Made by a program: the position numbers and the translations under genes. Of a DNA stretch of 45,135 bases, positions 6,842-45,135 are shown in pieces. Positions within the stretch are counted from its first letter, which is position 1; every line of letters begins with the position of its first letter. Below the pieces are notes generated by a model. That model was not told the origin of the DNA, ran no database searches, and saw only the letters and a list, made by a program, of their open reading frames with translations. The DNA is from a virus, in the IMG/VR virus record IMGVR_UViG_3300045988_040126; one strand, written 5' to 3'.

Positions 6842-6936
6842 GCGTCCAACTCGTACAACGTCCGCAACGTCAATTCCTCCGGCGCGATGAACTGGAACAA
6901 CGCGTACAATGGCAACAACGGCGTTCGCCCGCTTTG
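6842..6936 (+). repeat. DGR template repeat (TR)
   Basis: 95 bp, non-coding, containing 23 adenines (mostly in AAC/AAT triplets). It aligns without gaps to 8975-9069 and (89 bp) to 21245-21333. Confidence 0.9.
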
Positions 6937-7205
6937 GTGGAAAACCGCGATTGAGTAAGCCGAAAGGCCGAAAACAGAGGACCACCCACAAAGGAGGGCG
7001 TATCCCTCCGTCGTGGTGACAGCACGGCGGTAAATACAAGATTGGTGAAGCAAGGTCCACGGAAACCAGCTTCCGTCCCGCTGCGGGCGCGCGGTGGGGT
7101 CCGATGATGAAGCATTGCACAACGAAACAAGGAACCCCGGCGCGTGTGCGTCGGGGCGTTTTGTTCCCTGCATGGCGGAATCTATACACGGCAAGGAGTT
7201 TTTAT
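6937..7205 (+). ncRNA. putative DGR RNA spacer region between TR and RT
   Basis: A 269-nt non-coding gap containing local hairpins (for example ggagggcgtatccctcc at about 6993-7009). By analogy with BPP-1, the TR-adjacent spacer is part of the template/primer RNA. Confidence 0.4.
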
Positions 7206-8327
7206 ATGCAAAACGCAGATTTCGAGCGGGTTTATGATTTCGGCAATCTATACGCCGGATTCCTGAAAGCCCGTCGGGGCAAGAGGGGCAAAGCAAGCGT
7301 CGCAAAGTTTGAAGCGAACTTGCTGGAGGCCCTTTGTTTGCTTTCGGAAATGTTGAAAAACAAAACGTACAGGCCGTCCGACTATTTCGTGTTCCGGGTA
7401 TATGAGCCGAAAGAACGAATCGTGATGACCAACGCGTTCAAAGACAAGGTGGTTCAACATTCCCTATGCGACAACATACTTGAACCCGCGTTTTCCCGCG
7501 GGTTTATCCGGGACAATTACGCGTCGCAGAAAGACAGAGGGACGCACGACGGATTATATCGGCTGGAAGCGTTTATGCGGTCCTATTACTTCACGCGGAA
7601 AAACAGAGCGGAACAGGCACGCCGGGAAGCGGGCTTGCCGCCGTTGCCGCCGAAAGAAGCAGGGTACGCCGACGGCTGGGTTTTGAAGTGCGATATATCA
7701 AAGTATTTCTATTCAATCCAGCATGAGCCGTTAAAACGAATGGTGCGGTCATACGTCCGGGACCCGGACGTTTTGTGGCTTACTGACATGATAATTGACA
7801 GCACCGAAAATCCCGGAATACCTATCGGCAATCAGACTTCACAATGGTTCGCCGTCATGTACCTTTCGGGGTTAGATCACTTCATAAAAGAGAAGCTGGG
7901 CATTCGCTATTATGGGCGGTACATGGACGACTTTTACTTGATACATGAGGACAAGGCGTACTTGCGGTATTGCTGGGCGGAAATTGAAAGGTACGTCGGC
8001 GAATTGAGATTGAAGCTGAACAATAAAACAAACATCTTTCCTTTGCGGAACGGCATTGACTTTTTAGGTTTTCACACGTATTTGACCGATTCGGGGAAAG
8101 TGATTCGGAAAGTTAGGAGGTCAAGCAAATGTAACGAACAAAGGAAGATGAAGAAACAGCGGGCTTTACTGGACGGCGGCAAAATCACCCTTGCGGAGAT
8201 CGAACAATCTTACGGAAGCTGGCGGAGCCACGCAATCAAGGGGAATTGTTATCACCTTGTCCGGGAAACGGACCGCACATTCAAAAATCTATTCAAGGAG
8301 AGTGAAAAACAATGGCAAAAGCATTAA
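7206..8327 (+). CDS. DGR-type reverse transcriptase
   Basis: AAGGAG RBS at 7192-7197 followed by an ATG. Contains the catalytic YMDD box (GRYMDDFYL) and the IGNQTSQ motif typical of DGR RTs. About 373 aa. Confidence 0.9.
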   Translation: MQNADFERVYDFGNLYAGFLKARRGKRGKASVAKFEANLLEALCLLSEMLKNKTYRPSDYFVFRVYEPKERIVMTNAFKDKVVQHSLCDNILEPAFSRGFIRDNYASQKDRGTHDGLYRLEAFMRSYYFTRKNRAEQARREAGLPPLPPKEAGYADGWVLKCDISKYFYSIQHEPLKRMVRSYVRDPDVLWLTDMIIDSTENPGIPIGNQTSQWFAVMYLSGLDHFIKEKLGIRYYGRYMDDFYLIHEDKAYLRYCWAEIERYVGELRLKLNNKTNIFPLRNGIDFLGFHTYLTDSGKVIRKVRRSSKCNEQRKMKKQRALLDGGKITLAEIEQSYGSWRSHAIKGNCYHLVRETDRTFKNLFKESEKQWQKH

Positions 8328-10030
8328 GTTCCCTTGCCGTCGGCGCGCTTGTCAAAGACACCGGGACGCTTTACAACGGCAAGCCTATTGTCTGGAAGAT
8401 TGCAGACAAGGGGCATACCGGCTACCCGTCCGGGTCCGTGACGCTGATTACGGAAAAGATCATTTCGTTAAAGTGCTTTGACGCTATCGAATCGGGGAAC
8501 AGCGACAGCAACCGCCGTTCTTACGGCAATAACCGCTGGATTTACTCGAATATCCGGCAATGGCTGAACAGCACCGCCGCCGCGGGTAAATGGTACAGCG
8601 CACAGCACAGCGCAGACGCGGCCCCGACGAATGCCAACGTATGGAGCAATTACAACGAATACGATCAGGAAGCGGGCTTCCTTGACGGGTTCTCCGCGAA
8701 CTTCCGTGCGGCCCTGCTGGAAACAACGCACACCGTCGGCAAAGCGTCGGTGGACGGCGGCGGAACCGAAACTTGCAAAGACAAGATTTTCTTTGCGTCC
8801 AGTACGGAAGTGGGCTTGACGGGTGACGCGACTTGCGGCACAAAGCTGGCCTTGTTCAGCGACGACAATTCCCGTCTGGCCTACCCGACCGCCGAATGTG
8901 TAAGCAAAAGCGAATACACGAACAGCAGTTTTGCCGCTTCAAAGCCGTGGTGGTGGTGGCTTTGCGACGCTTACGCGTCCCGCTCGTACAACGTCCGCGG
9001 CGTCGATTCCTCCGGCGCGATGAGCTGGAGCAGCGCGGGCAATGGCGGCAACGGCGTTCGCCCGCTTTGTAATTTGTCATCTTCAATCTTGGTATCTGAT
9101 AACCCGGATTCGGATGGCGCATACACAATCGTATGGAATCAGGCCCCGACGGTCCCCGGAAGTATCACCGTTCCGACGGACGTTCGCGGAGGAAGCAACC
9201 TGACCGTAAGCTGGGGAACGTCCACGGACAGCGACGGCAATTTGTCCGGGTACATCTTGGAGCGCCAGCACGACGGCGGCACGTGGACGCAGATTTACAA
9301 GGGAATCAACCGCACGTACACCGACGCAATCACGTTCGGCTGGAAGAACGTTGCATACCGCGTGAAAGCCTACGACAGCGCCGGGGCCGCGTCCGGGTAC
9401 AAGACCAGCGCGACCCGAACCGTCGTGAACAACACCGCGCCCACGATCAACGGCACAGATTCAAACATCGGAACGAAAACAGGGCCGTTCAATCAGGGCT
9501 ACACCGTCACCGACCCGGACAGCGGGCAGACGATCACCGTTGTTGAGAAGATCGACGGCGTGCAAAAGCGGTCCTATACCGCCACAAGCGGGCAGAACTA
9601 TTCTTTCAACGTGACGGCGGCGGAATGGGTGAAGCTTTTGAACGGGTCCCACAAGCTGACGATCACCGCGACGGACAACTACGGCGGGAGCGCAACCCGG
9701 ACGTACACGTTCACGAAGAACGAAACCGAAATTGAATTGACCCTTTCGGCCCCGCTGGACGCTGACGACATGGTGACAAAGGCAATTATGAGCGTCACCC
9801 GGCAGATTCCCGCGGGCGCGACGTTCTCCGTTGAAATGTGCAATAACGGGTATGACGCGTCCCCGACGTGGGAGGACGTGACGCAAGCCGTCATTTCCGG
9901 GAACAAAATCTTCTTACAGAATAAGACAAAGACAGCCGCAAAATGGGGCTTCAACTTCCGAATCAAGGTGAATCGGAACGGGGCCGCGGGCGACTGCTTC
10001 ATTGTTTCGGCAGGGGGGAATTTTGAATGA
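8312..10030 (+). CDS. DGR target protein 1 (N-terminal C-type-lectin-like variable domain plus Fn3/Ig-like domains); likely receptor-binding tail protein
   Basis: 572 aa. WWWW..C..Y precedes VR1, which ends in GVRPLC. Downstream, the segment LTVSWGTSTDSDGNLSGYILERQ...YRVKAYD looks like fibronectin type III. Confidence 0.85.
   Translation: MAKALSSLAVGALVKDTGTLYNGKPIVWKIADKGHTGYPSGSVTLITEKIISLKCFDAIESGNSDSNRRSYGNNRWIYSNIRQWLNSTAAAGKWYSAQHSADAAPTNANVWSNYNEYDQEAGFLDGFSANFRAALLETTHTVGKASVDGGGTETCKDKIFFASSTEVGLTGDATCGTKLALFSDDNSRLAYPTAECVSKSEYTNSSFAASKPWWWWLCDAYASRSYNVRGVDSSGAMSWSSAGNGGNGVRPLCNLSSSILVSDNPDSDGAYTIVWNQAPTVPGSITVPTDVRGGSNLTVSWGTSTDSDGNLSGYILERQHDGGTWTQIYKGINRTYTDAITFGWKNVAYRVKAYDSAGAASGYKTSATRTVVNNTAPTINGTDSNIGTKTGPFNQGYTVTDPDSGQTITVVEKIDGVQKRSYTATSGQNYSFNVTAAEWVKLLNGSHKLTITATDNYGGSATRTYTFTKNETEIELTLSAPLDADDMVTKAIMSVTRQIPAGATFSVEMCNNGYDASPTWEDVTQAVISGNKIFLQNKTKTAAKWGFNFRIKVNRNGAAGDCFIVSAGGNFE
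8975..9069 (+). repeat. DGR variable repeat 1 (VR1)
   Basis: 95 bp aligned to TR with 12 differences. Eleven are at TR adenines (for example AAC->CGC, GGC, AGC) and one is T->G. Encodes aa ~222-253 of the target. Confidence 0.9.
9086..9098 (+). promoter_or_regulatory. conserved element atcttggtatctg, 17 nt 3' of VR1 (candidate IMH/target-recognition element)
   Basis: The same 13-mer at the same 17-nt offset is found after VR2 (21350-21362). It is absent 3' of TR. Confidence 0.45.
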
Positions 10031-14426: not shown

Positions 14427-14990
14427 TTATCCGGCAACAAACACACCCAGCGGGGAGCCGCCCGCGGAACGCCACCCCCGGCGGTGAATATCGGACAGGC
14501 GGACCCGTTCGGGAGCGTTCGGGCGGTTATCCCAGCGAATCACGGCATGAACGCCGCCGCGGGTGAAGCGTCCGACGGGTTCGTTATAAAACCCGATGAT
14601 CGTTCCGCCCTGTACGGGATAGCAAGCGCCGCACACGCATTCGACACGCTGACCGATCACAACAATAACGGTCCCGTCGTCGGCAGGCTGGGCAATCGTG
14701 ATAACGTTGGAGCGGGCCGGGGCTTCCTGAACAGGGGCCGGGGCTTCCTCTTCCTCGACGGTTTCCGGCTGAAATTCGCGTTCAGCGCGGAAAACCGGGG
14801 CCATAGAATACCGTTCAGGAATGATATATTCCCCGCGGTCATCGGTGAACAGCTTTGCCCGGCGGGTTTTGCCGTTCCGCTCAAAAGTAACGGTTTTGTC
14901 GGTGCGCTTGATGATCTTAATAACGAAAATGCAATTACTATCGCACGCGCTGGTATCAAAATATTCCTTGCCGATTTCAAACTTTTTCAT
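14427..14990 (-). CDS. hypothetical two-domain protein with an acidic/Pro linker
   Basis: 187 aa from the ATG at 14990, preceded by GGGAGG. First gene of the leftward transcription unit. No family was recognised. Confidence 0.65.
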   Translation of the reverse strand: MKKFEIGKEYFDTSACDSNCIFVIKIIKRTDKTVTFERNGKTRRAKLFTDDRGEYIIPERYSMAPVFRAEREFQPETVEEEEAPAPVQEAPARSNVITIAQPADDGTVIVVIGQRVECVCGACYPVQGGTIIGFYNEPVGRFTRGGVHAVIRWDNRPNAPERVRLSDIHRRGWRSAGGSPLGVFVAG

Positions 14991-15138
14991 GTGATTACCT
15001 CCCATATTATAAAACCGAAGTTGAAGTGTTGCCGTTTACCGCGTCGGCCCCCTTTTCGTGTCGGCCCGTAAGGTTGGCCGTTGCCGAACTTTACGCCTCG
15101 GCAACCGGGCGGCTTGTGTTTCCCTCTTTCTGTCTATT

Positions 15139-15167
15139 ATTATATACTAACGTTAGTATAAAGTCAA
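15139..15167 (-). promoter_or_regulatory. leftward sigma70-type promoter (TTGACT-N17-TATAAT) with operator O1 in the spacer
   Basis: The minus strand reads cTTGACTttatactaacgttagtaTATAAT. The -35 is at 15162-15167 and the -10 at 15139-15144. Confidence 0.7.
15143..15160. promoter_or_regulatory. operator O1: perfect 18-bp palindrome TATACTAACGTTAGTATA
   Basis: The sequence is its own reverse complement. Related copies lie at 15186, 15214, 16882 and 21679. Confidence 0.75.
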
Positions 15168-15185
15168 GGGGAAATATTGCACAAA

Positions 15186-15203
15186 TATACTAACGTGAGA
15201 TTA
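15186..15203. promoter_or_regulatory. operator O2 (15/18 match to O1)
   Basis: tatactaacgtgagatta, located between the divergent promoters. Confidence 0.55.
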
Positions 15204-15213
15204 GGCAGAATTT

Positions 15214-15231
15214 TATACTTGCGTTAGTATT
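15214..15231. promoter_or_regulatory. operator O3 (15/18 match to O1), overlapping the -35 of the rightward promoter
   Basis: tatacttgcgttagtatt. The 19 bp tttatacttgcgttagtat are identical to 16880-16898. Confidence 0.65.
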
Positions 15232-15247
15232 TGCGACGTGCTATAAT
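15219..15247 (+). promoter_or_regulatory. rightward sigma70-type promoter (TTGCGT-N17-TATAAT)
   Basis: The -35 is at 15219-15224 and the -10 at 15242-15247, with a spacer of exactly 17 nt. It is followed by an RBS and the ATG at 15273. Confidence 0.7.
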
Positions 15248-15272
15248 GGACGCAGAAAGGGGGAGCAGGAAG

Positions 15273-15470
15273 ATGGCTGGAAAGTTTGAAACGCCCCGCG
15301 GACAGGCCGCGACGGACGCGAAACGAAAGTACAATGAAAAAAGCTATGATCGGCTTTATCCTATGGTACACAAGGGAAAGAAAGAAACCTATATTGCCGC
15401 GGCGAAAGCGGCGGGAATGTCATTGAATGAATGGATTGAAAAGACGCTTGACGCGGCGGCAGAGGGGTAA
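15273..15470 (+). CDS. small ribbon-helix-helix (Arc/CopG-like) DNA-binding protein, candidate operator-binding regulator
   Basis: 65 aa. KRKYNEKSYDRLYPMV.KG.KE.....A...G.SLNEWI resembles Arc/CopG-type RHH proteins. RBS AAAGGGGGAG. Confidence 0.55.
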   Translation: MAGKFETPRGQAATDAKRKYNEKSYDRLYPMVHKGKKETYIAAAKAAGMSLNEWIEKTLDAAAEG

Positions 15471-15720
15471 ATATACACGAAGAGGGTTACAGCAAGATTC
15501 ATCGGGGAAACCTCTTGCGGGTTTGTTTCGGGTTTTGTCTATGAATTGCAGATATACACGGATTCGCGGTGGGTATGGGTGCGGGACAGACACAGCGCCG
15601 CACAATGCCCGTATTCCTCCATAAAAACGCTGGCGGAAAATTGGGAAATTACAGCAAAGGAAGATTTCAGACGGTACAGACCGTTCGGAATGCCAGTATC
15701 TAACCGTATATGGGACGACT

Positions 15721-15752
15721 AAAAAGCGGCGGGCGCAATGCCCGCCGCTTTT
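15721..15752. terminator. bidirectional rho-independent terminator
   Basis: AAAAA-gcggcgggc-gcaat-gcccgccgc-TTTT, lying between convergent transcription units. Confidence 0.85.
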
Positions 15753-15768
15753 GCCTTATGTGCCGCAA

Positions 15769-16467
15769 TCAATCGGCCTGTTCGTATGTGTACGCCCCGT
15801 CCGCGCCCTGCTTGATAAATCCGGCAGTATCAGCAATTCGCCCACCGCCGTCGAGGGTCCCATAAACGGGAACCGTAACGTCGGAGCCGTCAAAAACAAT
15901 CCCGGTCCCGTCGTCACACTTGATCGTAAAATAGTTGTACCCGCTATCTTTCACGACGGTTTCGGCAAATTCCGCGAAGTTCTCCGCGGTGAGGTCCGAA
16001 AGCTGGGACTTTAGAACGCTGATATATGCACGCTGACCGATCACGTCGCCGGAACCGCTTTTCACGTCCTCCGTTTTCACGTCGCAATCAAGCAGGAAGT
16101 TATATTGCCTATATTCCGGGTAAAGAACGTCTTTCCCGTCGCCGATCTCCGCAACCGTGCCGTCGTCGTTCATGGTGACTTCAAGGGAGTTTGTACCCCA
16201 GCGGACTTTATAGGCCCCGTCACTTTCGGAAACGGTATTGATCTTCCCGTCAAGGCCGCAAGACACAAGCGCAATGAAAACTTCATCGGCCTGTTCGGGG
16301 GTGATCTGCATTTCGGCCCGAATCGTGTTCATAGAATCCGGGTAAAAGTCATATTGCGCCGTCAATTCCTCCGATTTTGGCGTGTCAAGGTCAACCAGCA
16401 CGTCACCGCAACCCGCAAGAGAGAGGGACAGGACCGCCGCAAGCGCAAGAGCAACAATTTTTTTCAT
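15769..16467 (-). CDS. prophage-encoded lipoprotein
   Basis: 232 aa with a signal peptide and lipobox (MKKIVALALAAVLSLSLAGC). Encoded on the opposite strand in the accessory island. Confidence 0.8.
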   Translation of the reverse strand: MKKIVALALAAVLSLSLAGCGDVLVDLDTPKSEELTAQYDFYPDSMNTIRAEMQITPEQADEVFIALVSCGLDGKINTVSESDGAYKVRWGTNSLEVTMNDDGTVAEIGDGKDVLYPEYRQYNFLLDCDVKTEDVKSGSGDVIGQRAYISVLKSQLSDLTAENFAEFAETVVKDSGYNYFTIKCDDGTGIVFDGSDVTVPVYGTLDGGGRIADTAGFIKQGADGAYTYEQAD

Positions 16468-16552
16468 GTGGAATCCTCCATTCCGCCGCCCGGCCCGCCG
16501 GGGGCTTGTGTTTTTTGAGGGCCGGACCGCCTGAAAACGCTGGCGTTCTGAC

Positions 16553-16613
16553 CTTTAACACAATTATGAACGGTTGGCGTGTTAAAGTCAAGAATGAAGC
16601 TGAACTTTAACAC
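16553..16613. promoter_or_regulatory. three copies of CTTTAACAC (direct, inverted, direct), each separated by 17 nt, upstream of the XRE gene
   Basis: ctttaacac at 16553-16561, gtgttaaag at 16579-16587, and ctttaacac at 16605-16613, in the divergent lipoprotein/XRE intergenic region. Confidence 0.55.
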
Positions 16614-16630
16614 AGAGCGGAGGAACAAAC

Positions 16631-16855
16631 GTGAAAATATACGACTATAAAGGCCGGAAGAATCTATGCGGAAACCGGGTGAAAGAAGCACGCGCCCGGA
16701 AGAACATTACGCAAGCCGACCTTGCCGCAAGATTACAGGTGGCGGGCGTGACAATGGAGCGGGACAGCGTTTCAAGAATCGAAATCGGAACCCGGTTCGT
16801 CACCGATTACGAACTTACCATTCTTGCGAAAGTGCTGGGCGTGTCTATGGAATAG
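16631..16855 (+). CDS. XRE-family helix-turn-helix transcriptional regulator
   Basis: 74 aa, GTG start after GGAGGA. The segment RVKEARARKNITQADLAARLQVAGVTMERDSVSRIEIG is a classic HTH_3 pattern. Confidence 0.85.
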   Translation: MKIYDYKGRKNLCGNRVKEARARKNITQADLAARLQVAGVTMERDSVSRIEIGTRFVTDYELTILAKVLGVSME

Positions 16856-16881
16856 CTGACCGAACAGGAAGAATAAAACTT

Positions 16882-16899
16882 TATACTTGCGTTAGTATA
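16882..16899. promoter_or_regulatory. operator O4 (16/18 match to O1), overlapping the promoter of the IS30-family gene
   Basis: tatacttgcgttagtata, with the same core as O3. Confidence 0.65.
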
Positions 16900-16915
16900 G
16901 CAAAGCCGTTATAAT
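16887..16915 (+). promoter_or_regulatory. sigma70-type promoter (TTGCGT-N17-TATAAT) upstream of the IS30-family transposase gene
   Basis: The -35 is at 16887-16892 and the -10 at 16910-16915. The architecture is identical to the promoter at 15219-15247. Confidence 0.7.
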
Positions 16916-16950
16916 ATCATTGCGGGAACCCCGCGGAAAAATAACGGTTA

Positions 16951-16990
16951 AAGCCCGCCCAGACCTTACGGAACGGGCGGGCTTATTTAC
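16951..16990 (+). promoter_or_regulatory. strong leader hairpin (terminator/attenuator-like) in the 5' UTR of the transposase gene
   Basis: aagcccgccc-(14 nt)-gggcgggctt followed by ATTT. It lies between the promoter and the RBS at 16995-16999. Confidence 0.45.
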
Positions 16991-17006
16991 TAACGGAGGT
17001 TTTAAC

Positions 17007-18068
17007 ATGGGACACAAGTTCAGCCATCTTCAAAAGCGCGACCGCTATAAAATCGAAGCGTTGTTGAATACAGGGCATAAACCGCAGGAAATCGCGGACG
17101 AAATACACGTACACGTAAGCACGATATACAGGGAGATCAAACGCGCCCGCATGGTACAGCTTACGACCGATCTCGAAGAGGTTGACAAATACAACCCCGA
17201 CGAAGCCGAAAAGCGATACCGGGAAAACCTTTCGGCAAAGGGTCCGGCCCTGAAAATCGGGAAAGACTTTGAACTTGTGGAGTATCTCGAAGCCAAAATG
17301 CTGGACAAGGACAACCCGCGTTCGCCCGCCGCCGCCCTTGCTGACATCAAGCTGGAGGGCCGGACGTTCAAAACGTCGATTTGCGTAAGCACCCTATACA
17401 GCTACATAGAAAAGGGCGTTTTCCTGACCTTGACGAATGCGGACTTGCCGGAAAAGCCGAAACGGAAGCGGAAATATAGAAAGGTCCGGGAAGCAAAGAG
17501 CGCCGCGGCGGGGGACAGCATAGACCGCCGCCCGCCGGAAGTAGATGACCGAAACACGTTCGGACATTGGGAGGGCGACACCGTTTATAGCAAAAAAGAC
17601 GGGTCAAAAGCCCTGCTTGTGCTGACAGAGCGATTGACCCGCCGGGAAATTATCATGCGGATAAAGGACAGGACCGCGGAAAGCGTGATTAAAGCCATTG
17701 ACCGTATAGAACGGAAATTCGGGGCCGACCTGTTCGCAAAGCTATTTCGGACGATCACGTTTGACAACGGAAAAGAGTTTTCCGACGTGGAGCGGCTGGA
17801 GCGGTCCGCCTTGCGTAAGGGGAAGAAGCGGACAAAGGTTTATTTTTGCCACCCGTATTCATCTTTTGAACGCGGTTCTAATGAGTGCCAAAACAAAATG
17901 ATTCGGCGGCGCTTCCCGAAAGGAACGGATTTCGGCAAGGTATCAGACGCAGAGGTGGCGAAAGCGGAAGCGTGGGTGAACAACTACCCGCGGGAAATTT
18001 TGGGCTGGCAGACCTCCGAAATCCTGTTTCAAGCCTACCTTGCCGCCCTTGTCACCGCCCCGAAATAA
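17007..18068 (+). CDS. IS30-family DDE transposase/integrase
   Basis: 353 aa. N-terminal HTH (PQEIADEIHVHVSTIYREIKR) and DDE-region motifs GHWEGDTV, TFDNGKEF and ERGSNE. Confidence 0.85.
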   Translation: MGHKFSHLQKRDRYKIEALLNTGHKPQEIADEIHVHVSTIYREIKRARMVQLTTDLEEVDKYNPDEAEKRYRENLSAKGPALKIGKDFELVEYLEAKMLDKDNPRSPAAALADIKLEGRTFKTSICVSTLYSYIEKGVFLTLTNADLPEKPKRKRKYRKVREAKSAAAGDSIDRRPPEVDDRNTFGHWEGDTVYSKKDGSKALLVLTERLTRREIIMRIKDRTAESVIKAIDRIERKFGADLFAKLFRTITFDNGKEFSDVERLERSALRKGKKRTKVYFCHPYSSFERGSNECQNKMIRRRFPKGTDFGKVSDAEVAKAEAWVNNYPREILGWQTSEILFQAYLAALVTAPK

Positions 18069-18127
18069 AATTTTTTATATTTTTTTCGCATTTACTCTTG
18101 ACATTTGCGTCCGCGGCTTGTATTATT

Positions 18128-18190
18128 AAATGCGAAAGAACAAAGCACCCCGAAAATCGGGTGCAACCGTTCTTCCGCATTTATTTTTTT
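18128..18190 (+). terminator. rho-independent terminator after the transposase gene
   Basis: Nested hairpin aaatgcgaaagaac...gcaccc-cgaaaat-cgggtgc...gttcttccgcattt followed by a T-rich tract (TTATTTTTTT). Confidence 0.65.
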
Positions 18191-18236
18191 ATACCACAGA
18201 GCAGAGGAAAAAGCAATAGAACGGGGGTGAAAACTT

Positions 18237-18515
18237 GTGCGGCGATACAAATACATAACATTTCAGGACCGAAGAACACTTGCCGCCGCATACGAACGCG
18301 GAGAGCGGGCGGCGGATATTGCGGAGCGGCTGGGGGTGACGGTTGCGACCGTGTACCGGGAGTTGAAGAGGGGCGAAAGCACCGACGGAAGCGGGAACGT
18401 GATTCTTGACCGCAACCAGCGCCCGGCATACAGCCCCGTTATTGCCCAGCAGACGGTACAAGCAAGCTTCAAGCGCCGCGGGCGCACGACCGCGGAAAGT
18501 GGCGCGGGCGTGTGA
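18237..18515 (+). CDS. IS30-like HTH-only protein (transposase N-terminal DNA-binding domain without the DDE domain)
   Basis: 92 aa. DRRTLAAAYERGERAADIAERLGVTVATVYRELKRG parallels the N-terminus of the 17007 gene. There is no catalytic region. GTG start. Confidence 0.6.
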   Translation: MRRYKYITFQDRRTLAAAYERGERAADIAERLGVTVATVYRELKRGESTDGSGNVILDRNQRPAYSPVIAQQTVQASFKRRGRTTAESGAGV

Positions 18516-18547
18516 TCGTCCGGGAATCTGAAAAGGAGGTTTTAACG

Positions 18548-18763
18548 GTGAACAACTTTGAAAAACTGACGAAAGGCCCGGACGCGCTGGGCGCATTCTT
18601 GCGAACCTTGCCCGTTTTAGAGGGGCCGTGGGACGCGGAATTTCACGCCCGCTTTTGCGCCGGGTGCGCCGCGGAGAATTGCGACGCTTGCCCGAACGAA
18701 GAGTTCAGGAACAACCCCGGCTGGTGGCTGACACTTGAAGCCGGAAAGGAGCGGGACGCATGA
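18548..18763 (+). CDS. hypothetical Cys-rich small protein
   Basis: 71 aa. GTG start after AAGGAGG plus the same ttttaac spacer seen at the 17007 gene. Confidence 0.55.
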   Translation: MNNFEKLTKGPDALGAFLRTLPVLEGPWDAEFHARFCAGCAAENCDACPNEEFRNNPGWWLTLEAGKERDA

Positions 18764-19907: not shown

Positions 19908-20568
19908 ATTTGTCGCCGTTGATTTCGACGGGACACTTTGCACAAACGATTTCCCGGAAATCGGGGAGCCGAACCCCGTTGTCATCGGCTACGTTCGGAA
20001 GCTGGCGGCGGAGGGTTCAAAGATCATTCTTTACACAAGCCGGGAAAACGGAACCCGGAAACTGCTTGACGAAGCGGTGGCGTTCTGCAAGGCGCAGGGA
20101 ATCCCGATTCACGCGGTCAATGAAAACCCGTGGAACCCATACGCCGCAACAATCGGCCTGAAACCGTCCGACGGGCGAAAGGTATATGCGGACCTTTACA
20201 TTGACGACAAGGCCATAAACCCAGCGGGACTTGAATGGGGCGGTTCATTGGAAAGAAAACAGCCGAAACGATACCCGTTGCCGCCGGAAGCCGGGAAAGC
20301 GGACGAGCGCTGGGCGGAGGTTATGAAGCTTGCGGAAGAATGCGGCTTTATCCTGCAAGCGGCGGCGGGAACGGCGATTCTTGCGACAAACCGGGTTCAG
20401 ATCGAAGAAAACGGCGTGGAAGATTACGCCCGCATTCAGCGAATGAACGGACGTTGCCCGCAAGAAATCGGGTTGCCGGGGTGCTTTGACAGCATGACGG
20501 GGGAACCGCGGTGCGTCGGGGAGCAATGCGAACTATGGAAGCGGAGGAAGCAACATGACAGAGGTTAA
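19894..20568 (+). CDS. HAD-superfamily phosphatase-like protein
   Basis: 224 aa. The N-terminal VDFDGTL (DxDxT) motif and a later YIDDK are consistent with the HAD fold. Confidence 0.55.
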   Translation: MPKYEFVAVDFDGTLCTNDFPEIGEPNPVVIGYVRKLAAEGSKIILYTSRENGTRKLLDEAVAFCKAQGIPIHAVNENPWNPYAATIGLKPSDGRKVYADLYIDDKAINPAGLEWGGSLERKQPKRYPLPPEAGKADERWAEVMKLAEECGFILQAAAGTAILATNRVQIEENGVEDYARIQRMNGRCPQEIGLPGCFDSMTGEPRCVGEQCELWKRRKQHDRG

Positions 20569-20860
20569 AACGGCCCGCCGTGGAGCGGGACAGCCCCAGC
20601 CGCGGCGGAGGACAAGCCGCCGGGCAAAGGTAAGCCGGGAAACAATCGCCCTTTATGCGACGCTGACCGTCGCCGGAATCCTGCTTTTTCGAGCGGGCGC
20701 GGCGGTTGCCTACGTGGAACGCGGGTACAGCGCGGTGGGCGGCGAAGTGTTCGCCTTGTTTCTCCCGGTATTTTACTACATCGTTTCGCAATTCGTCGGC
20801 GATATTGCCGCGGACATGAAAAAAATCAAGGAGGAAAACGACCATGAAAAAACTTGCTGA
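20555..20860 (+). CDS. small membrane protein
   Basis: 101 aa with a basic N-terminus and two hydrophobic helices. It overlaps the next gene by 17 nt. Confidence 0.5.
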   Translation: MTEVKTARRGAGQPQPRRRTSRRAKVSRETIALYATLTVAGILLFRAGAAVAYVERGYSAVGGEVFALFLPVFYYIVSQFVGDIAADMKKIKEENDHEKTC

Positions 20861-21575
20861 ACTGAAATGCGGTGCGCGCTTCACATATGCCGGGGTGGAA
20901 TGGGTCAAGCTGGAGGACAACGACGGCGGCGCGCTTGCCCTTGCCGCCGAACCTGTCTTTGAACGGGCTTTCGACGAAGAGAATTGCAACGATTGGCGCA
21001 AGTCGTCCTTGCGCCGAGAACTGAACGGCCCGTTCCTTGACGCGCTGATTGCAGAGGGCGCAGACCGGGCGGCGTTCCTCGACCTCGAAAGCGACTTGAC
21101 CGCCGATGACGGAATGACCGACTACGGGACCGCGACGGACAAAATCGCCTTGATTTCCGACGGCCTGTACCGCAAGTTCCGCGCCCTGATTCCGAAAATC
21201 GGGTGCTGGTGGTGGACCCTGACCCCGTGGACGTGCGACCCCGAATACTCGTGCCGCGTCCGCTACGTCTATTCCTCCGGCGCGTTGCACTGGTACCGCG
21301 CGTACAATGGCTACGTCGGCGTTCGCCCGCTTTGCAATATGAAATCTGACATCTTGGTATCTGTTCAGGGTGAAGAGAACGCAGACGATCAGGCGGAGCG
21401 CCGGGCCACGGCGGTTGAGGAAGCCGCGGAAGCCGTCATTGACACGCTGGGCGAATATGCCGTGTCCCTTTGGGGCGACGTGCTGGCGGCGGTTGTGTCG
21501 TCCCTCTTCAAGTCGAAGCTGGACGCGGAAGAGATCATGCAGGAAGAGAAAGCAAAAAGGGCGGCGGAGGGTTGA
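20844..21575 (+). CDS. DGR target protein 2 (remote target; C-type-lectin-like variable domain plus acidic/hydrophobic C-terminal tail)
   Basis: 243 aa. CWWWTLTPW precedes VR2, which ends in GVRPLC. The VR matches the TR at 6848-6936. Confidence 0.85.
   Translation: MKKLAELKCGARFTYAGVEWVKLEDNDGGALALAAEPVFERAFDEENCNDWRKSSLRRELNGPFLDALIAEGADRAAFLDLESDLTADDGMTDYGTATDKIALISDGLYRKFRALIPKIGCWWWTLTPWTCDPEYSCRVRYVYSSGALHWYRAYNGYVGVRPLCNMKSDILVSVQGEENADDQAERRATAVEEAAEAVIDTLGEYAVSLWGDVLAAVVSSLFKSKLDAEEIMQEEKAKRAAEG
21245..21333 (+). repeat. DGR variable repeat 2 (VR2)
   Basis: 89 bp aligned to TR 6848-6936 with 14 differences, all at TR adenines (AAC->TAC, CGC, CAC, GTC; ATG->TTG; TAC->TGC; AAT->TAT). 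Confidence 0.9.
21350..21362 (+). promoter_or_regulatory. conserved element atcttggtatctg, 17 nt 3' of VR2 (candidate IMH/target-recognition element)
   Basis: The 13-mer and its spacing are identical to those after VR1. Confidence 0.45.
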
Positions 21576-27410: not shown

Positions 27411-28181
27411 GTGAAAACTATATCAATTATCAACCTGAAAGGCGGCGTTGCAAAGACGCTGACCGCTGACAACATGGCGCACGTTCTCGCAGTTTTCCAC
27501 AATAAGCGGGTATTGCTTGTGGATAACGACAAGCAGGGCAACACGTCAAAGGCATTCGGGGTTCATTCCTACGACGAAAAGAGCCTTTCGGACATTCTGA
27601 CCGCCCGGAGGATTGACCCGCACGAAGTCATAAAAAAGACGCGGTTTCAGAACATCGACGTATTGCCCGCAAATATGACCCTGATTCGGGCGAATCTTGA
27701 AGTGATGATGGACAGCGCCCGGCCCCAGCAAACGCGCCTACGGGCCGCGCTGGGGGCCGTAACGGGCGAATATGACTATTGCATTATAGACAACGCCCCC
27801 GACATCAACATATCGACTATAAACGCCCTTGTCGCGTCTGACGACGTGATTATTCCGATCAAGATTGACAAATACGCCTTTGACGGGCTGGCGGAACTGA
27901 AAGAGCAGATCGAGGACACGCGGGACGACATGAACCCGCGCTTACGGCTGGCGGGTTGCCTTATCACCTGTTTTCAGAGGACCGACGCGGACAGGCAGGG
28001 CGAAGAATGGTTAAAAGCCCAGCCGGAATACCCGGTTTTCGACACGCACATTCGCTATTCGGAGAAAGTCACCGAAAGCACCTTTTCCGAATCCCCCATT
28101 GCTGAATACAGCAGACGGAGCGGGGCCGCTATGGACTATATCGCGTTTGTACGGGAGTATTTGCAGAGGGGCAAAAAGTGA
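27411..28181 (+). CDS. parA: ParA-family partition ATPase
   Basis: 256 aa with a deviant Walker A (NLKGGVAKT), DNDKQGN and IIDNAP motifs. GTG start after AGGAGG. Confidence 0.85.
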   Translation: MKTISIINLKGGVAKTLTADNMAHVLAVFHNKRVLLVDNDKQGNTSKAFGVHSYDEKSLSDILTARRIDPHEVIKKTRFQNIDVLPANMTLIRANLEVMMDSARPQQTRLRAALGAVTGEYDYCIIDNAPDINISTINALVASDDVIIPIKIDKYAFDGLAELKEQIEDTRDDMNPRLRLAGCLITCFQRTDADRQGEEWLKAQPEYPVFDTHIRYSEKVTESTFSESPIAEYSRRSGAAMDYIAFVREYLQRGKK

Positions 28182-28402
28182 AAAACTGCAATTATTGTGA
28201 ATACCTGAACTTGACAGAGGAACAGCAACACAAAGCCGGAACAGGCAAGCCGCATATTTGCTTGAAGTACGGGAAACGGGTTTTTCACAGATCGACCGAA
28301 CGGGGGTATCACGAAATGATTTACCCTTGCCGGGAATGCGAAAATGAAAGTTTGTCCGAATCGGACGGAAAGGGGCTTACATCATGGCAAAGTTTAACTT
28401 GA
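28178..28402 (+). CDS. small zinc-finger protein
   Basis: 74 aa with CNYC ... CREC. It lies between parA and parB. Confidence 0.45.
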   Translation: MKNCNYCEYLNLTEEQQHKAGTGKPHICLKYGKRVFHRSTERGYHEMIYPCRECENESLSESDGKGLTSWQSLT

Positions 28403-29601
28403 ATCAGATTTTGAACGACGCTTCACGGGCCGCGGCAAAGGGTGGGGAGCCTACCCCCCGCCCCGCTGAAAGCAGGATGGAGAAAATCAGCGTTTACGAC
28501 CTTGTGCCGTCGGAAGATAATTTTTACTCAATTCGGGAGATTGAAGAACTGAAAGCGGCAATCGAAATCGCCGGGAAAGTGCTTCAAAACCTTGTCGTCG
28601 TCCCGCTCGACGGCGGGAAATACAAGGTCATTGCCGGACACCGCCGCCGCCTTGCGTCGATTTCTCTTGTTGAAGAGGGAAAACCGCAATATGAGTTCGT
28701 GCCGTGCGACGTGGAGCCGAACGAAGAAGCGGCGGGAGATCAAGAGGTACGCGACGGCCTTATGCTGATTGTGACAAATTCGCAGAGAGAAAAAACCGCA
28801 TGGGACAAAATCGAAGAAGTGCGGTATTTGCGGGAAGTGCTGGAGAAAGCCCGGACAAAGCCCCGGTTCGTCGCCCTGCTTCAACAGATCGTTACACAGA
28901 CGTTCGGCGGTGCAGAGGTTCAAGCGGACGGGACGCGGGATTTCATAGCAAAGGTGCTTCACACAAGCACAACGCAGATCGGGCGGTATGACGCGATCAT
29001 TCGGAATCTTTGCCCGGACTTCAAAGCGGAGTTGCAAGAGGACCGCATAAACGTTTCGACCGCCTACGAACTTTCGGGGCTGGCGGCGGAGGAACAGCAA
29101 GCGGCGTTTGCGGAGTATCAGCGGACCGGGGAAATCTCCATAAAGGCCGCACGGGAACGGAAAACCCAGCCCCCAGCGGAGCGGACAGAGTGGGAAACGC
29201 CGCCACCCGCTCCACAGACCGCCGCACAGCCGCCGGAAGCACCGGGACGTAAAGAAACATACCAGCCCGCAGAGAGGGCCGAAGAGGGCCGCACAAAGCC
29301 GCCGAAACAGCAGGACGCGCCCGCAGAAAAGCCGGATTCGGCAGCAGGACCGACCGACAAAGCGGAAGCGAAGCCCCCGGCGGAGCGGGAACAGCAGGAA
29401 CCGCCGAAAACGCCGGAAGAAACAAGGTGCGTTGACGGTGGCATTTGCCCGTATTGCGGGGGACGGTTCGACGCGGCGGAAGCGGTCAATTACAGCACGC
29501 TGGGGACACAGACGACAGGCCCTATAAATTGCCCGCATTGCGGAAAGCCCGTCAAAATCTTTTGTTCGGTGGAATATTTCTGTTCCCCGGCGGAAGAGTG
29601 A
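28384..29601 (+). CDS. parB: ParB-like N-terminal domain protein with a Pro-rich linker and C-terminal zinc ribbon
   Basis: 405 aa. LQNLVVVPLDGGKYKVIAGHRRRLA is the ParB box. Then a Pro/Glu/Ala-rich segment of about 90 aa, then CPYCG ... CPHCG. Confidence 0.8.
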   Translation: MAKFNLNQILNDASRAAAKGGEPTPRPAESRMEKISVYDLVPSEDNFYSIREIEELKAAIEIAGKVLQNLVVVPLDGGKYKVIAGHRRRLASISLVEEGKPQYEFVPCDVEPNEEAAGDQEVRDGLMLIVTNSQREKTAWDKIEEVRYLREVLEKARTKPRFVALLQQIVTQTFGGAEVQADGTRDFIAKVLHTSTTQIGRYDAIIRNLCPDFKAELQEDRINVSTAYELSGLAAEEQQAAFAEYQRTGEISIKAARERKTQPPAERTEWETPPPAPQTAAQPPEAPGRKETYQPAERAEEGRTKPPKQQDAPAEKPDSAAGPTDKAEAKPPAEREQQEPPKTPEETRCVDGGICPYCGGRFDAAEAVNYSTLGTQTTGPINCPHCGKPVKIFCSVEYFCSPAEE

Positions 29602-43073: not shown

Positions 43074-45135
43074 TTGGCGGGAAGAAAAGAATTTGAATTG
43101 CTTTTTAAGCTTCAGGCGACGCTGGGGAGCGGGTTTAATTCCAGTTTCAACAGCGCAATGAACGCGTCAAAGCAGTTACAAGGCAACCTTTCCAAAATCA
43201 ACGCGCTTTCCGGGAAGATCGAGGGGTTCCAAAAGCAGAGCGCCGCCCTTGAAGCGAACAAAGACAAGCTGGCGAAGCTGACAGAGGAACACGACCGCTT
43301 ACAGCGGGAAATGAGCCAAACGGAACAGCCGTCGGAAGCCTTGCGGCAGAAAATGGAGAGGAACGCCCGCCAGATTGAGCAAACCACCGCAAAAATTCAG
43401 GAACAGGAAGCCCGGCTGGGTCAACTCGGCGACGAACTACGCGACGCAGGGGTTGACACAGACAATTTGACCGCGGAGAACGAACGGCTGGCCGAAAGTT
43501 ACGAACAGGTCCGCCGGAATCAGGAGCGGCTGGCGAAGATCGGACAGGCACAGCAGAAAAACAGCGAAGCGATTTCAAAGACAAAGACACAGCTTGCCGG
43601 GACGATTGGGACCATTGCCGCGCTGGGGACGGCGATTTATGCCGGACCCGTTCAAAAGTCGATAGAGTTTCAAACGGCGATGGCGAAAGTCGGCACGATT
43701 GCCGACACGAACGTTGTTCCCCTTTCGCAAATGCAGAAAGAGATCATCAATCTGTCTAACGCGCTGGGGGTCAATGCAAGCACCGTCGCGGAGGACGTTT
43801 ACAACGCGATTTCCGCCGGGCAAAAAACTTCCGACGCGGTTGCATTCGTGGAAAAAGCGACCATGCTTGCAAAGGGCGGCTTTGCCGAAACCGGGCAGGC
43901 GCTGGACGTTCTGACGACGATTCTAAATGCCTACGGTATGGAATCGTCGAAAACGGAAGAAATTTCTAATATGCTGATTACGACGCAAAACCGCGGCAAA
44001 GTCACCGTCGCGGAATTGTCGTCGGTCATGGGTAAAGTGATTCCGACCGCGAATGCAAACAACGTCGCGCTGGAACAGCTTTGCGCGGGCTACTCCATTA
44101 TGACAGCCCGCGGCATTGCCGCCGCCGAAACGACAACGCACATGAACAGTATGTTGAATGAATTAGGCAAAAGCGGCACGTCGGCAGATAAAGCGTTAAG
44201 ACAAGCCGCGGGAAAAGGATTCAGCGAACTGATGGCGGAGGGGAAAAGCCTTGCGGACGTTCTGAACATCTTGCAGGGTGAAGCCGACAAGAGCGGAAAA
44301 ACCCTTGCGGATATGTTCGGGAGCGCGGAAGCAGGAAAAGCCGCCCTTACGCTGATGGCAAACGGCGTTGAGGGATTCAACGACGAAGTTTCCGCAATGG
44401 TAGACAGCACCGGGGCCGCACAAGCCGCCTACGAAAAAATGATGAACACGACCGAAGAGAAGATAAAAAAGGCAAAAACGGCCTTGTCGAATCTCGGTAT
44501 TGTGTTGGGTGATACGTTCTTACCATACGTCACAACCGCGGCGGAAAAGTTGTCGGATTTGGTGACGAAGTTTTCGGCATGGGCGCAGGAAAACCCGAAA
44601 TTGCTTTCAACAATCGTCAAGGTTGCCGCGGCCCTTTTGACATTAAAGGCCGGGGGGCAAGCGGGAAAGCTTGCGTTCTTGGAAATCAAGGGCGGAATAT
44701 TGGGGATTCAAGGCGCATTTGCGAAGATGAAAGCGTTTAACGCGTCCGGCGGTATAAAGGGCCTGTTTTCAGGGCTTGGAGGTATCAAAGGAAAGCTTTT
44801 GCCCCTTGTCGGTATCATCGGCGGCGTTGCCCTTGCAATCAAGCTGATTTCCGGCAATCTCGAAGAGGTCCGCGGATGGATTCAACAGACGTTCGGTGAC
44901 GGCGCGCTTGCCGTGTTTGACAAGGTGTGGGGCGTGATTCAGAACGTCGGCGCGGCAATCAAAGGCGTTTTCAGCGGTGAGGGCATGGGAAACGCCCGGA
45001 ATTTCTTTGAAGAGCATTTCGGAGAAGCGGGCGTTGCCGTGTTTGATTCGATCATCGGCGTTGTGGAGCAGTTAAAGGGAATCTTGCCCGTTCTGCAATC
45101 GCTACTTCAAGCACTTATGCCGATCATTCAGGCCG
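43074..45135 (+). CDS. tail tape measure protein, N-terminal part (continues at 1-801; total 935 aa)
   Basis: TTG start after AGGGGG. Coiled-coil N-terminus and a TP901-type core (VGTIADT...AISAGQ...A.....A.....AKGGFAE). The frame is open to the end of the window and across the junction. Confidence 0.9.
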   Translation, partial: MAGRKEFELLFKLQATLGSGFNSSFNSAMNASKQLQGNLSKINALSGKIEGFQKQSAALEANKDKLAKLTEEHDRLQREMSQTEQPSEALRQKMERNARQIEQTTAKIQEQEARLGQLGDELRDAGVDTDNLTAENERLAESYEQVRRNQERLAKIGQAQQKNSEAISKTKTQLAGTIGTIAALGTAIYAGPVQKSIEFQTAMAKVGTIADTNVVPLSQMQKEIINLSNALGVNASTVAEDVYNAISAGQKTSDAVAFVEKATMLAKGGFAETGQALDVLTTILNAYGMESSKTEEISNMLITTQNRGKVTVAELSSVMGKVIPTANANNVALEQLCAGYSIMTARGIAAAETTTHMNSMLNELGKSGTSADKALRQAAGKGFSELMAEGKSLADVLNILQGEADKSGKTLADMFGSAEAGKAALTLMANGVEGFNDEVSAMVDSTGAAQAAYEKMMNTTEEKIKKAKTALSNLGIVLGDTFLPYVTTAAEKLSDLVTKFSAWAQENPKLLSTIVKVAAALLTLKAGGQAGKLAFLEIKGGILGIQGAFAKMKAFNASGGIKGLFSGLGGIKGKLLPLVGIIGGVALAIKLISGNLEEVRGWIQQTFGDGALAVFDKVWGVIQNVGAAIKGVFSGEGMGNARNFFEEHFGEAGVAVFDSIIGVVEQLKGILPVLQSLLQALMPIIQA
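45081..45135. repeat. 55-bp terminal overlap identical to 1-55
   Basis: Exact duplicate of the window start. Confidence 0.95.

Follow-up and report, generated by a model that had tools for sequence, protein, structure and literature searches.

IS30-family transposases are already known to act as integrases of tailed phages. This was reported for FP_Lagaffe (Cornuault et al. 2018), a phage with virions, a cos site and flanking direct repeats that was found in both F. prausnitzii and Blautia hansenii and, unlike Mushu, is packaged from its cos site without variable host ends (PMC5883640). The strategy was generalised by Wirbel, Hickey et al. (Nature 2025), who named the IScream phages, counted 1,780 candidates in a gut virus catalogue, described their outward full-length and inward truncated IS30 genes, showed circles and particles (with virions for a B. 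hansenii phage) and framed the mobilisation as composite-transposon-like (PMC12823448). The text of that paper makes no mention of inverted repeats, target sites or promoters, and we found no follow-up literature on the mechanism of the IScream or Lagaffe type. Here we analyse the IMG/VR virus record IMGVR_UViG_3300045988_040126 (45,135 nucleotides, the whole of which we call the window), centring on its IS30-family transposase gene at 17007–18068. The window is an IScream-class phage of a separate lineage, and the whole 45-kb phage most likely behaves as a giant IS30-like element with the product of this open reading frame (ORF) as its integrase. A first-pass annotation of the window had called such an integration strategy uncommon, which still holds, although the strategy itself was already in print for FP_Lagaffe and the IScream phages. 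What we add are the terminal repeats, the 2-nucleotide circle spacer, the 15-bp duplication of the target, a promoter whose two boxes lie on opposite ends, a strong preference for one fixed distance upstream of host promoters and an operator that covaries with the phage switch; the end anatomy, split promoter, promoter-proximal targeting and covarying operator are drawn from sequence comparison. The Lagaffe and IScream papers do not report terminal inverted repeats, a 2-nucleotide spacer, a 15-bp duplication, a junction promoter or promoter targeting.

The resemblance to the IScream phages and Lagaffe is extensive. Each is a tailed temperate phage of gut Clostridia that lacks a tyrosine or serine integrase and encodes a full virion, packaging and lysis set. 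They share an outward IS30 transposase at one prophage end and an inward N-terminal relic at the other, a gene order of lysis genes, reverse-strand genes, helix-turn-helix (HTH) regulators, transposase, HTH protein and early genes, the reverse transcriptase of a diversity-generating retroelement (DGR) and direct repeats at the borders; the end-spacer-end junction of Lagaffe is the same. The phages nevertheless differ in that DNA similarity to Lagaffe is confined to short stretches of 65–79% and the transposase is ~52% identical to the Lagaffe-like clade, which places the window in a distinct lineage. The operator-controlled transposase promoter described below is limited to the clade with 66–99% transposase identity and is absent in Lagaffe.

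The second point of comparison is the insertion sequence itself. IS30 transposes by a copy-out-paste-in route through a junction of its two abutted inverted repeats (IR-IR junction), with hot spots or its own repeats as targets, and an engineered phage has been made in which its transposase takes the place of lambda integrase (PMC9333248; Kiss, Szabo and Olasz 2003, as described by papers that cite it). The features of the window that bear on this comparison are as follows, with the two phage ends abutted as in the circular form.

17007–18068, plus strand: IS30-family DDE transposase, 353 amino acids, the last gene before the right end; HTH_38 and rve domains; D191, D253, E293.
18080–18109, plus strand: right terminal inverted repeat, ...TTTTTTTCGCATTTACTCTTGACATTTGCG; 18109 is the last phage base in integrated copies.
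18098–18126, plus strand: predicted junction promoter, TTGACA-17 nt-TATTAT; -35 box at 18098–18103 in the right end, -10 box at 18121–18126 in the left end.
18110–18111, no strand: 2-nucleotide spacer of the end-to-end junction (TC here), circular form.
18112–18141, plus strand: left terminal inverted repeat, CGCGGCTTGTATTATTAAATGCGAAAGAAC; 18112 is the first phage base in integrated copies.
18127–18194, plus strand: terminator-like hairpin TAAATGCGAAAGAAC...GTTCTTCCGCATTTA with T-run in the junction-promoter leader, kept in relatives.
18237–18515, plus strand: HTH_38-only protein, 92 amino acids, the first gene inside the left end; Pfam HTH_38 1.9e-11.

The assignment of the ORF at 17007–18068 to the IS30 family, made in the first-pass annotation, was borne out by every profile that we applied. 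The protein scores 231 bits against the NCBIfam equivalog model NF033563 transpos_IS30 (cut-off 80), aligns over its full length with phrog_4646 ('transposase, integration and excision') at 5e-140 and carries the Pfam domains HTH_38 (residues 4–46) and rve (residues 185–285). Its catalytic triad is intact, with D191, D253 and E293 lying within HWEGD, FDNG and SNE motifs at spacings of 61 and 39 residues. The D-to-E spacing of IS30 is 33 residues, that of the phage enzyme being somewhat longer. A PDB sequence search with the transposase gave no match. The companion claim that the genome holds no tyrosine or serine integrase also stood: no Phage_integrase, Resolvase or Recombinase domain was found in Pfam scans of the 40 other ORFs, which comprise every other likely gene of at least 140 amino acids.

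We found the identical phage integrated at no fewer than five sites in public assemblies, so that the integrated forms that the first-pass annotation suggested looking for are abundant. In loci L003, L007, L009, L010, L011 and L012 an identical transposase gene lies at the prophage–host border and is followed by unrelated bacterial genes, while in L013, L015, L016 and L018–L022 bacterial genes precede the HTH_38 gene; on the circular-form contigs L004, L006 and L008 the identical transposase gene is followed by the window's own HTH_38 gene. On alignment, all copies are identical through 18109 (...CTCTTGACATTTGCG) and diverge beyond it, and on the other side identity starts at 18112 (CGCGGCTTGTATTATTAAATGCG...). 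Host DNA accordingly begins 41 nucleotides past the transposase stop codon (L003, L007, L009, L010) and ends 125 nucleotides before the HTH_38 gene (in all eight left-border loci named above). Two scaffolds carry both borders: LIUR17-1 scaffold_104, with AAAAAGAGAAAAAAT on each side of the insert, and GREE22-1 scaffold_507, with TGCAAAACTCCGTTG on each side. Target duplications are 15 bp in the two same-contig pairs of borders (L018/L007 and L021/L010), and 15–16 bp are shared in two cross-sample pairs (L019 and L020 with L003; L015 with L009).

The ends defined in this way are imperfect inverted repeats that match at 19 of 30 positions, including a terminal CGC, and share an exact 11-nucleotide core, TAAATGCGAAA, at positions 16–26. 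In the circle they are separated by a spacer that reads TC, AC, AT or TG in otherwise identical contigs (L004, L005, L006, L008, L023) and is always 2 nucleotides long, also in clades whose transposases are 75% and 52% identical. The spacer may derive from flanking host bases: three of the four dinucleotides match flanks of known sites, although no sample had both a circular and an integrated form. That the circle carries 2 nucleotides and not the 15-bp repeat points to transposition chemistry and away from conservative site-specific recombination. Apart from its 45-kb scale, the end anatomy is that of an IS30-type circle whose ends meet in an IR-IR junction.

These borders also bear on the possibility that an ordinary IS30-family insertion sequence has landed in the phage as a passenger with no role in its life cycle. 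The protein does pass the IS30 equivalog model, and a paper on the F. prausnitzii phage FP01 reads the IS30 gene of that phage in just this way (PMC13432834). However, a unit of 1.0–1.3 kb flanked by inverted repeats of 20–30 bp is not present, since the upstream repeat is absent; the inverted repeat at the right end has its counterpart at the left end of the entire 45-kb phage. A search for imperfect inverted repeats within ~450 bp of each end of the gene gave a best local alignment score of 20 between one flank and the reverse complement of the other, against 19 +/- 2 for shuffled sequence, and IS30-type repeats with target duplications bracketing ~16.9–18.2 kb were not found. The statement in the first-pass annotation that terminal repeats are missing is thus right for the surroundings of the gene but not for the phage, whose own ends are inverted repeats and abut downstream of the gene in the circle. 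Further evidence against a passenger comes from the prophage borders, which fall 41 nucleotides past the transposase stop, from the covariation of the transposase-promoter operator with the phage switch (see below) and from copy number, with one or two copies per genome. Phage-borne homologues grade from 99% to ~49% identity in IMG/VR and GTDB genomes of Oscillospiraceae, Lachnospiraceae and other Clostridia, and in all of these relatives the locus of the gene and its neighbours are unchanged. Identity to true multicopy IS30 elements does not exceed 33%. We therefore regard a passenger as hardly credible.

The same layout recurs across these relatives. The right-end motif TTTTTTCGCATTTACTCTTGACATTT.. 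follows the transposase stop in homologues down to 51% identity, and also in Lagaffe and phage nd12, and the order right end, 2 nucleotides, left end is found in the circular relatives L027 and L028 (75%) and L050–L056 (~52%). Gene order and junction are likewise unchanged in FP_Lagaffe and nd12.

Joining the ends is predicted to create a promoter. Among all sigma-70-type matches in 14900–18700 the best (11 of 12 positions) spans the junction, its 17-nucleotide spacer being made up of 6 nucleotides of the right end, the 2-nucleotide spacer and 9 nucleotides of the left end. Because the -35 and -10 boxes lie on opposite ends, this predicted promoter exists only in the circular form, where it faces the HTH_38 gene and the long run of rightward genes for early functions, replication and virion structure. 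The split geometry (6 + 2 + 9) is retained in the 75% clade (-10 box TAATAT) and the 52% clade (TAACAT), and the corresponding sequences are TTGACT-17-TAATAT in Lagaffe and TTGACT-17-TATCAT in nd12. Junction promoters are familiar from IS30 and other copy-out-paste-in elements, and in the minicircle junction of IS30 a spacer of 2 bp separates the ends and a -35/-10 promoter arises. A circular form with abutted inverted repeats, a short spacer and a predicted junction promoter, as expected of an IS30 element, is present in the phage. On this reading the early genes would be turned on once the circle has formed, and the split promoter suggests a way in which circle formation may be coupled to early gene expression.

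The leader of this predicted promoter folds into a hairpin (18127–18194) that is conserved in relatives, including Lagaffe and nd12, with altered inner stems. Its outer stem pairs the left-end core TAAATGCG with an inverted third copy, CGCATTTA (18176–18183). A role as RNA (attenuator or small RNA) is possible, as is one as additional transposase-binding DNA. An Rfam scan of 14900–18700 for the leader hairpins returned sub-threshold matches only, including isrK at E = 0.98. In some near-identical phages an extra segment of ~1.3 kb with two genes (275 and 139 amino acids, no Pfam match) lies between the left-end leader and the HTH_38 gene (L005 7227–8526; also L019, L023, L159 and L160), and these phages also show a variant leader hairpin with compensatory changes.

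The protein encoded just inside the left end is a homologue of the DNA-binding domain with which IS30 transposases begin at their N terminus, judging from its matches to phrog_11420 (3e-36) and, over residues 1–80, to phrog_4646 and from its 31% identity to transposase residues 3–47, and it corresponds to the truncated inward IS30 gene of the IScream phages. The window's prophages thus have an outward full-length IS30 gene at one end and an inward truncated IS30-like gene at the other. This arrangement would suit a composite transposon made of two IS30 copies, one full-length and one decayed and each with its own ends, as in the published description (PMC12823448), and the HTH_38 relic next to the left end would be accounted for by descent from a second copy. 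Yet only the two outermost ends are detectable, with no inner inverted repeat upstream of the transposase gene or downstream of the HTH_38 gene, and the HTH_38 protein belongs to a conserved family (phrog_11420) and is not a decaying pseudogene. We consider a composite transposon unlikely: as a present-day mechanism it reduces to a single 45-kb element, though as evolutionary history it may be correct.

The integrated copies further reveal where the phage inserts. Unique left flanks (37) were gathered from this phage and from relatives with HTH_38 proteins 56–98% identical, and their consensus reads tTATTaTA, 17 nucleotides, TgTCAAG, 25 nucleotides, then the phage end. On the opposite strand this is TTGACA-17-TATAAT, a promoter of sigma-A type that points away from the prophage, with the -35 hexamer ending 26 nucleotides from the phage joint. 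The reverse complement of TTGACA-17-TATAAT is matched at 9 or more of 12 positions, at a single fixed offset, by 24 of 34 unique left flanks, as compared with a mean of 0.05 flanks (maximum 1) at other offsets. Owing to this offset, the 15-bp duplication spans approximately -47 to -61 of the host promoter and the core promoter is left intact. The adjacent host gene runs in the promoter direction in six of the eight junction loci of this phage itself (rplS, dnaX and others).

The target motif resembles the phage junction read on the opposite strand (TAATAATA, 17 nucleotides, TGTCAAGAG), and an additional conserved G following TGTCAA in the motif agrees with the phage end. On this basis we think it more likely that the transposase itself recognises a junction-like sequence, akin to the preference of IS30 for its own repeats and for hot spots; alternatively, the enzyme may be tethered to RNA polymerase bound at a promoter. 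The fixed distance speaks against selection after insertion as the sole cause. If promoter targeting is real, a universal target would offer a simple reason for integration in hosts of different families, and the phage would provide a defined system for a DDE enzyme with offset target recognition.

Set against E. coli IS30, the phage shares an HTH and DDE transposase, terminal inverted repeats, a circle with abutted ends and a preference for end-like targets or palindromic hot spots. It differs in its size (45 kb rather than 1.2 kb) and in its duplication (15 bp rather than 2 bp), its predicted junction promoter faces the early genes and not the transposase gene, and it inserts 26 nucleotides beside the recognised motif rather than within it. 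As a strict IS30-family element it fails on size and duplication length, while it conforms as an enzyme and in its junction chemistry.

Expression of the transposase appears to be tied to the regulatory circuit of the phage, the relevant features of which are listed here.

15139–15247, no strand: predicted genetic-switch region; leftward promoter 15167–15139, rightward promoter TTGCGT 15219–15224 / TATAAT 15242–15247.
15144–15159, 15187–15202 and 15215–15230: switch operators O1 (a perfect palindrome), O2 and O3.
15273–15470, plus strand: HicB/RHH-like protein, 65 amino acids, right after the switch; Pfam HicB 0.0011 (weak), phrog_13890.
16631–16855, plus strand: XRE-type HTH regulator, immediately upstream of the transposase promoter; Pfam HTH_3 and HTH_31, PHROG transcriptional repressor families.
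16883–16898, plus strand: operator O4, ATACTTGCGTTAGTAT, overlapping the -35 box of the transposase promoter.
16887–16915, plus strand: putative transposase promoter, TTGCGT-17 nt-TATAAT, read from sequence.
16951–16988, plus strand: GC-rich hairpin with U-run of the intrinsic-terminator type, between the promoter and the transposase ribosome-binding site.

The first-pass annotation had noted that the transposase promoter copies that of the RHH gene over 19 identical bp, and this we confirm: TTTATACTTGCGTTAGTAT is identical over 19 nucleotides at 15212–15230 and 16880–16898 (21 of 22 over 15209–15230 and 16877–16898), with TATAAT 17 nucleotides after each copy. The palindrome ATACTAACGTTAGTAT and its variants occur five times against an expectation of 0.07, at 15144 (in the spacer of the strong leftward promoter), 15187, 15215 (the rightward -35 box), 16883 (the transposase -35 box) and 21680 (a weak site). 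Operator and TATAAT are conserved in relatives while the surrounding sequence diverges, and all relatives with 66–99% transposase identity have an operator of the O4 type some 100 to 140 nucleotides before the transposase start. Two operator types, T and G, are found among these relatives (...CGTTAGTAT and ...CGTGAGTAT), and in every one of ~25 the type at the transposase promoter is that of the switch operators; in L080 the transposase is 99% identical to the window's and yet all operators are of the other type. The wiring of the transposase to a phage operator is, as a prediction, well supported.

The likely binder of the operators ATACTNNCGTTAGTAT is the RHH-like protein, which covaries with operator type and is just 42–43% identical in L025 and L080, where other proteins, including its neighbours, are 82–99% identical. 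The XRE protein is a less likely candidate because it does not covary with operator type. Its gene stops at a TAG codon (16853–16855) that gives a protein of 74 amino acids as against 81 in L003, L004, L005 and L007; this stop, seven codons earlier than in most near-identical relatives, is shared by L006. A second set of repeats (CTTTAACAC, GTGTTAAAG, CTTTAACAC) at 16546–16612, between the XRE gene and a divergent lipoprotein-like gene (15769–16467, minus strand), overlaps a leftward promoter (16591–16563) and resembles an operator system in its own right, perhaps one that serves the XRE protein.

Downstream of the putative promoter, folding upheld the strong leader hairpin noted earlier at 16951–16990: the stem 16951–16960 pairs with 16975–16984 and is followed by TTATTT (fold of the leader -34.7 kcal/mol, z = -3.2). 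A hairpin and T-run precede the transposase gene in nearly all phage-borne relatives examined, down to ~51% identity and with differing stems, as well as in Lagaffe and nd12. Among the close relatives the core of the stem, CCCGCCC/GGGCGGG, hardly varies, with double changes in only 2 of 10 pairs, so structural support comes mainly from distant relatives with different stems. In distant clades the hairpin directly follows the upstream regulator gene with no promoter between them. From this placement, the transposase gene would always be insulated by a terminator and expressed by read-through, which fits an enzyme that must stay scarce.

Taken together, these features suggest a mechanism in which the transposase would make a circle by the IS30-family copy-out route and paste it into promoter-like targets, which resemble the end-to-end junction such that the host core promoter would be spared. 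Circle formation would assemble the promoter that turns on the early genes. The RHH-like protein would bind the operators, so that transposase synthesis would follow the lysis-lysogeny switch, and the terminator would keep the level of transposase low. The proposal in the first-pass annotation that an IS30 enzyme was recruited as the integrase accords with the integrated copies, the phage ends and the operator covariation, whereas its further step of immunity control is something that we can only infer. With somewhat less than even confidence, we suggest a combination of two ideas, namely that sites are chosen through host sigma-A promoters that mimic the junction, and that induction proceeds through DNA topology with transposase expression as the committed step. 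Insertion at a fixed 26 nucleotides upstream of the -35 box would spare the host promoter, and such a target would be available in any Firmicute; the early promoter would arise only after the transposase had joined the ends, with the transposase itself gated by the switch operator and the terminator.

Several points weigh against treating the phage as a giant IS30-like element under switch control. The duplications are 15 bp (16 in one cross-sample pair) as opposed to the 2–3 bp typical of IS30, and spacer (2 nucleotides) and duplication (15 bp) are of unequal length, unlike in IS30. For long duplications the only IS30-family precedent that we found is IS1630 of Mycoplasma fermentans, with 16–26 bp (PMC3317919), but this is an insertion sequence of 1.2–1.4 kb that, according to the title of Calcutt et al. 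1999, targets inverted repeats rather than promoters. The -35 box of the transposase promoter (TTGCGT) is weak and a consensus scan did not call the promoter, and the assignment of the RHH-like protein as binder draws on covariation among related, non-independent genomes. Both the transposase promoter and the junction promoter are followed by a terminator-like hairpin, so productive transcription would require read-through or antitermination. Copy-out, in which the prophage stays in place, is assumed here over true excision. Finally, a ParA gene and a ParB-like gene (27411–29601) may leave room for an episomal phase.

27411–28181 and 28384–29601: ParA-type ATPase (AAA_31, 2e-47) and ParB_N-like protein (weak match).

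These two genes raise the alternative of an episomal phage-plasmid or of Mu-like replicative transposition, with IS30 integration as an incidental event. Like Mu and FP_Mushu, the phage would use a DDE transposase as its integration enzyme. Mu relies on MuA, an enzyme of a different family, together with MuB, transposes replicatively, packages host-flanked DNA and makes 5-bp duplications. The ParA ATPase and ParB_N-like protein, as well as several public contigs of circular type, would fit an episomal life, but many independent integrated copies have clean target duplications and the circle junction is constant except for 2 nucleotides. Unlike Mu, the phage has its own replication initiator, of rolling-circle type, along with a gpA-type terminase and a lambda-type portal, and its relative Lagaffe has a defined circle and uses a cos site without variable host ends (PMC5883640). 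We judge this alternative very unlikely; in a phage that clearly integrates, the ParA/ParB-like pair may serve an episomal phase or have another role.

The window as a whole is a circular assembly with a 55-nucleotide terminal overlap (1–55 = 45081–45135). Besides the terminase and portal, its virion, packaging and lysis set comprises a ClpP-like protease, capsid E, tail tube, baseplate J, tail fibre and a glucosaminidase lysin, and it also encodes two methylases, the rolling-circle-type replication initiator and a DGR-type reverse transcriptase. A family of 116-nucleotide repeats (70–78% identity) at 6850–6965, 8983–9098 and 21248–21363 adjoins the reverse transcriptase gene (7104–8327) and lies inside or near the genes of two DUF6273 proteins (ORFs 8312–10030 and 20844–21575). 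Repeats and reverse transcriptase together look like a diversity-generating retroelement with two targets, resembling that reported for Lagaffe.

Two independent derivatives of ~14 kb were found among the integrated copies, one bounded by L021 and L010 (GREE22-1 scaffold_507) and the other at L015. The deletion runs from window position 20427/20770 to 6055/6060, removing ~31 kb of replication, packaging and virion genes, while both phage ends, the early genes, the DGR reverse transcriptase, lysis genes, switch and transposase are retained. They lie at two different sites, one on a contig with both borders and the 15-bp duplication, and the L015 derivative has 16 nucleotides in common with a right border from another sample. 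Such derivatives may move as mini-elements, an artefact of metagenome assembly being the alternative.

A 99% identical transposase is also present in the genomes 'Firmicutes bacterium CAG:124' and 'Lachnospiraceae bacterium isolate B68' (L079, L080, L085), the latter of which holds a second, 72% identical copy on another contig. The host range may accordingly be wide, and related phages that differ in operator type may share one host as double lysogens.

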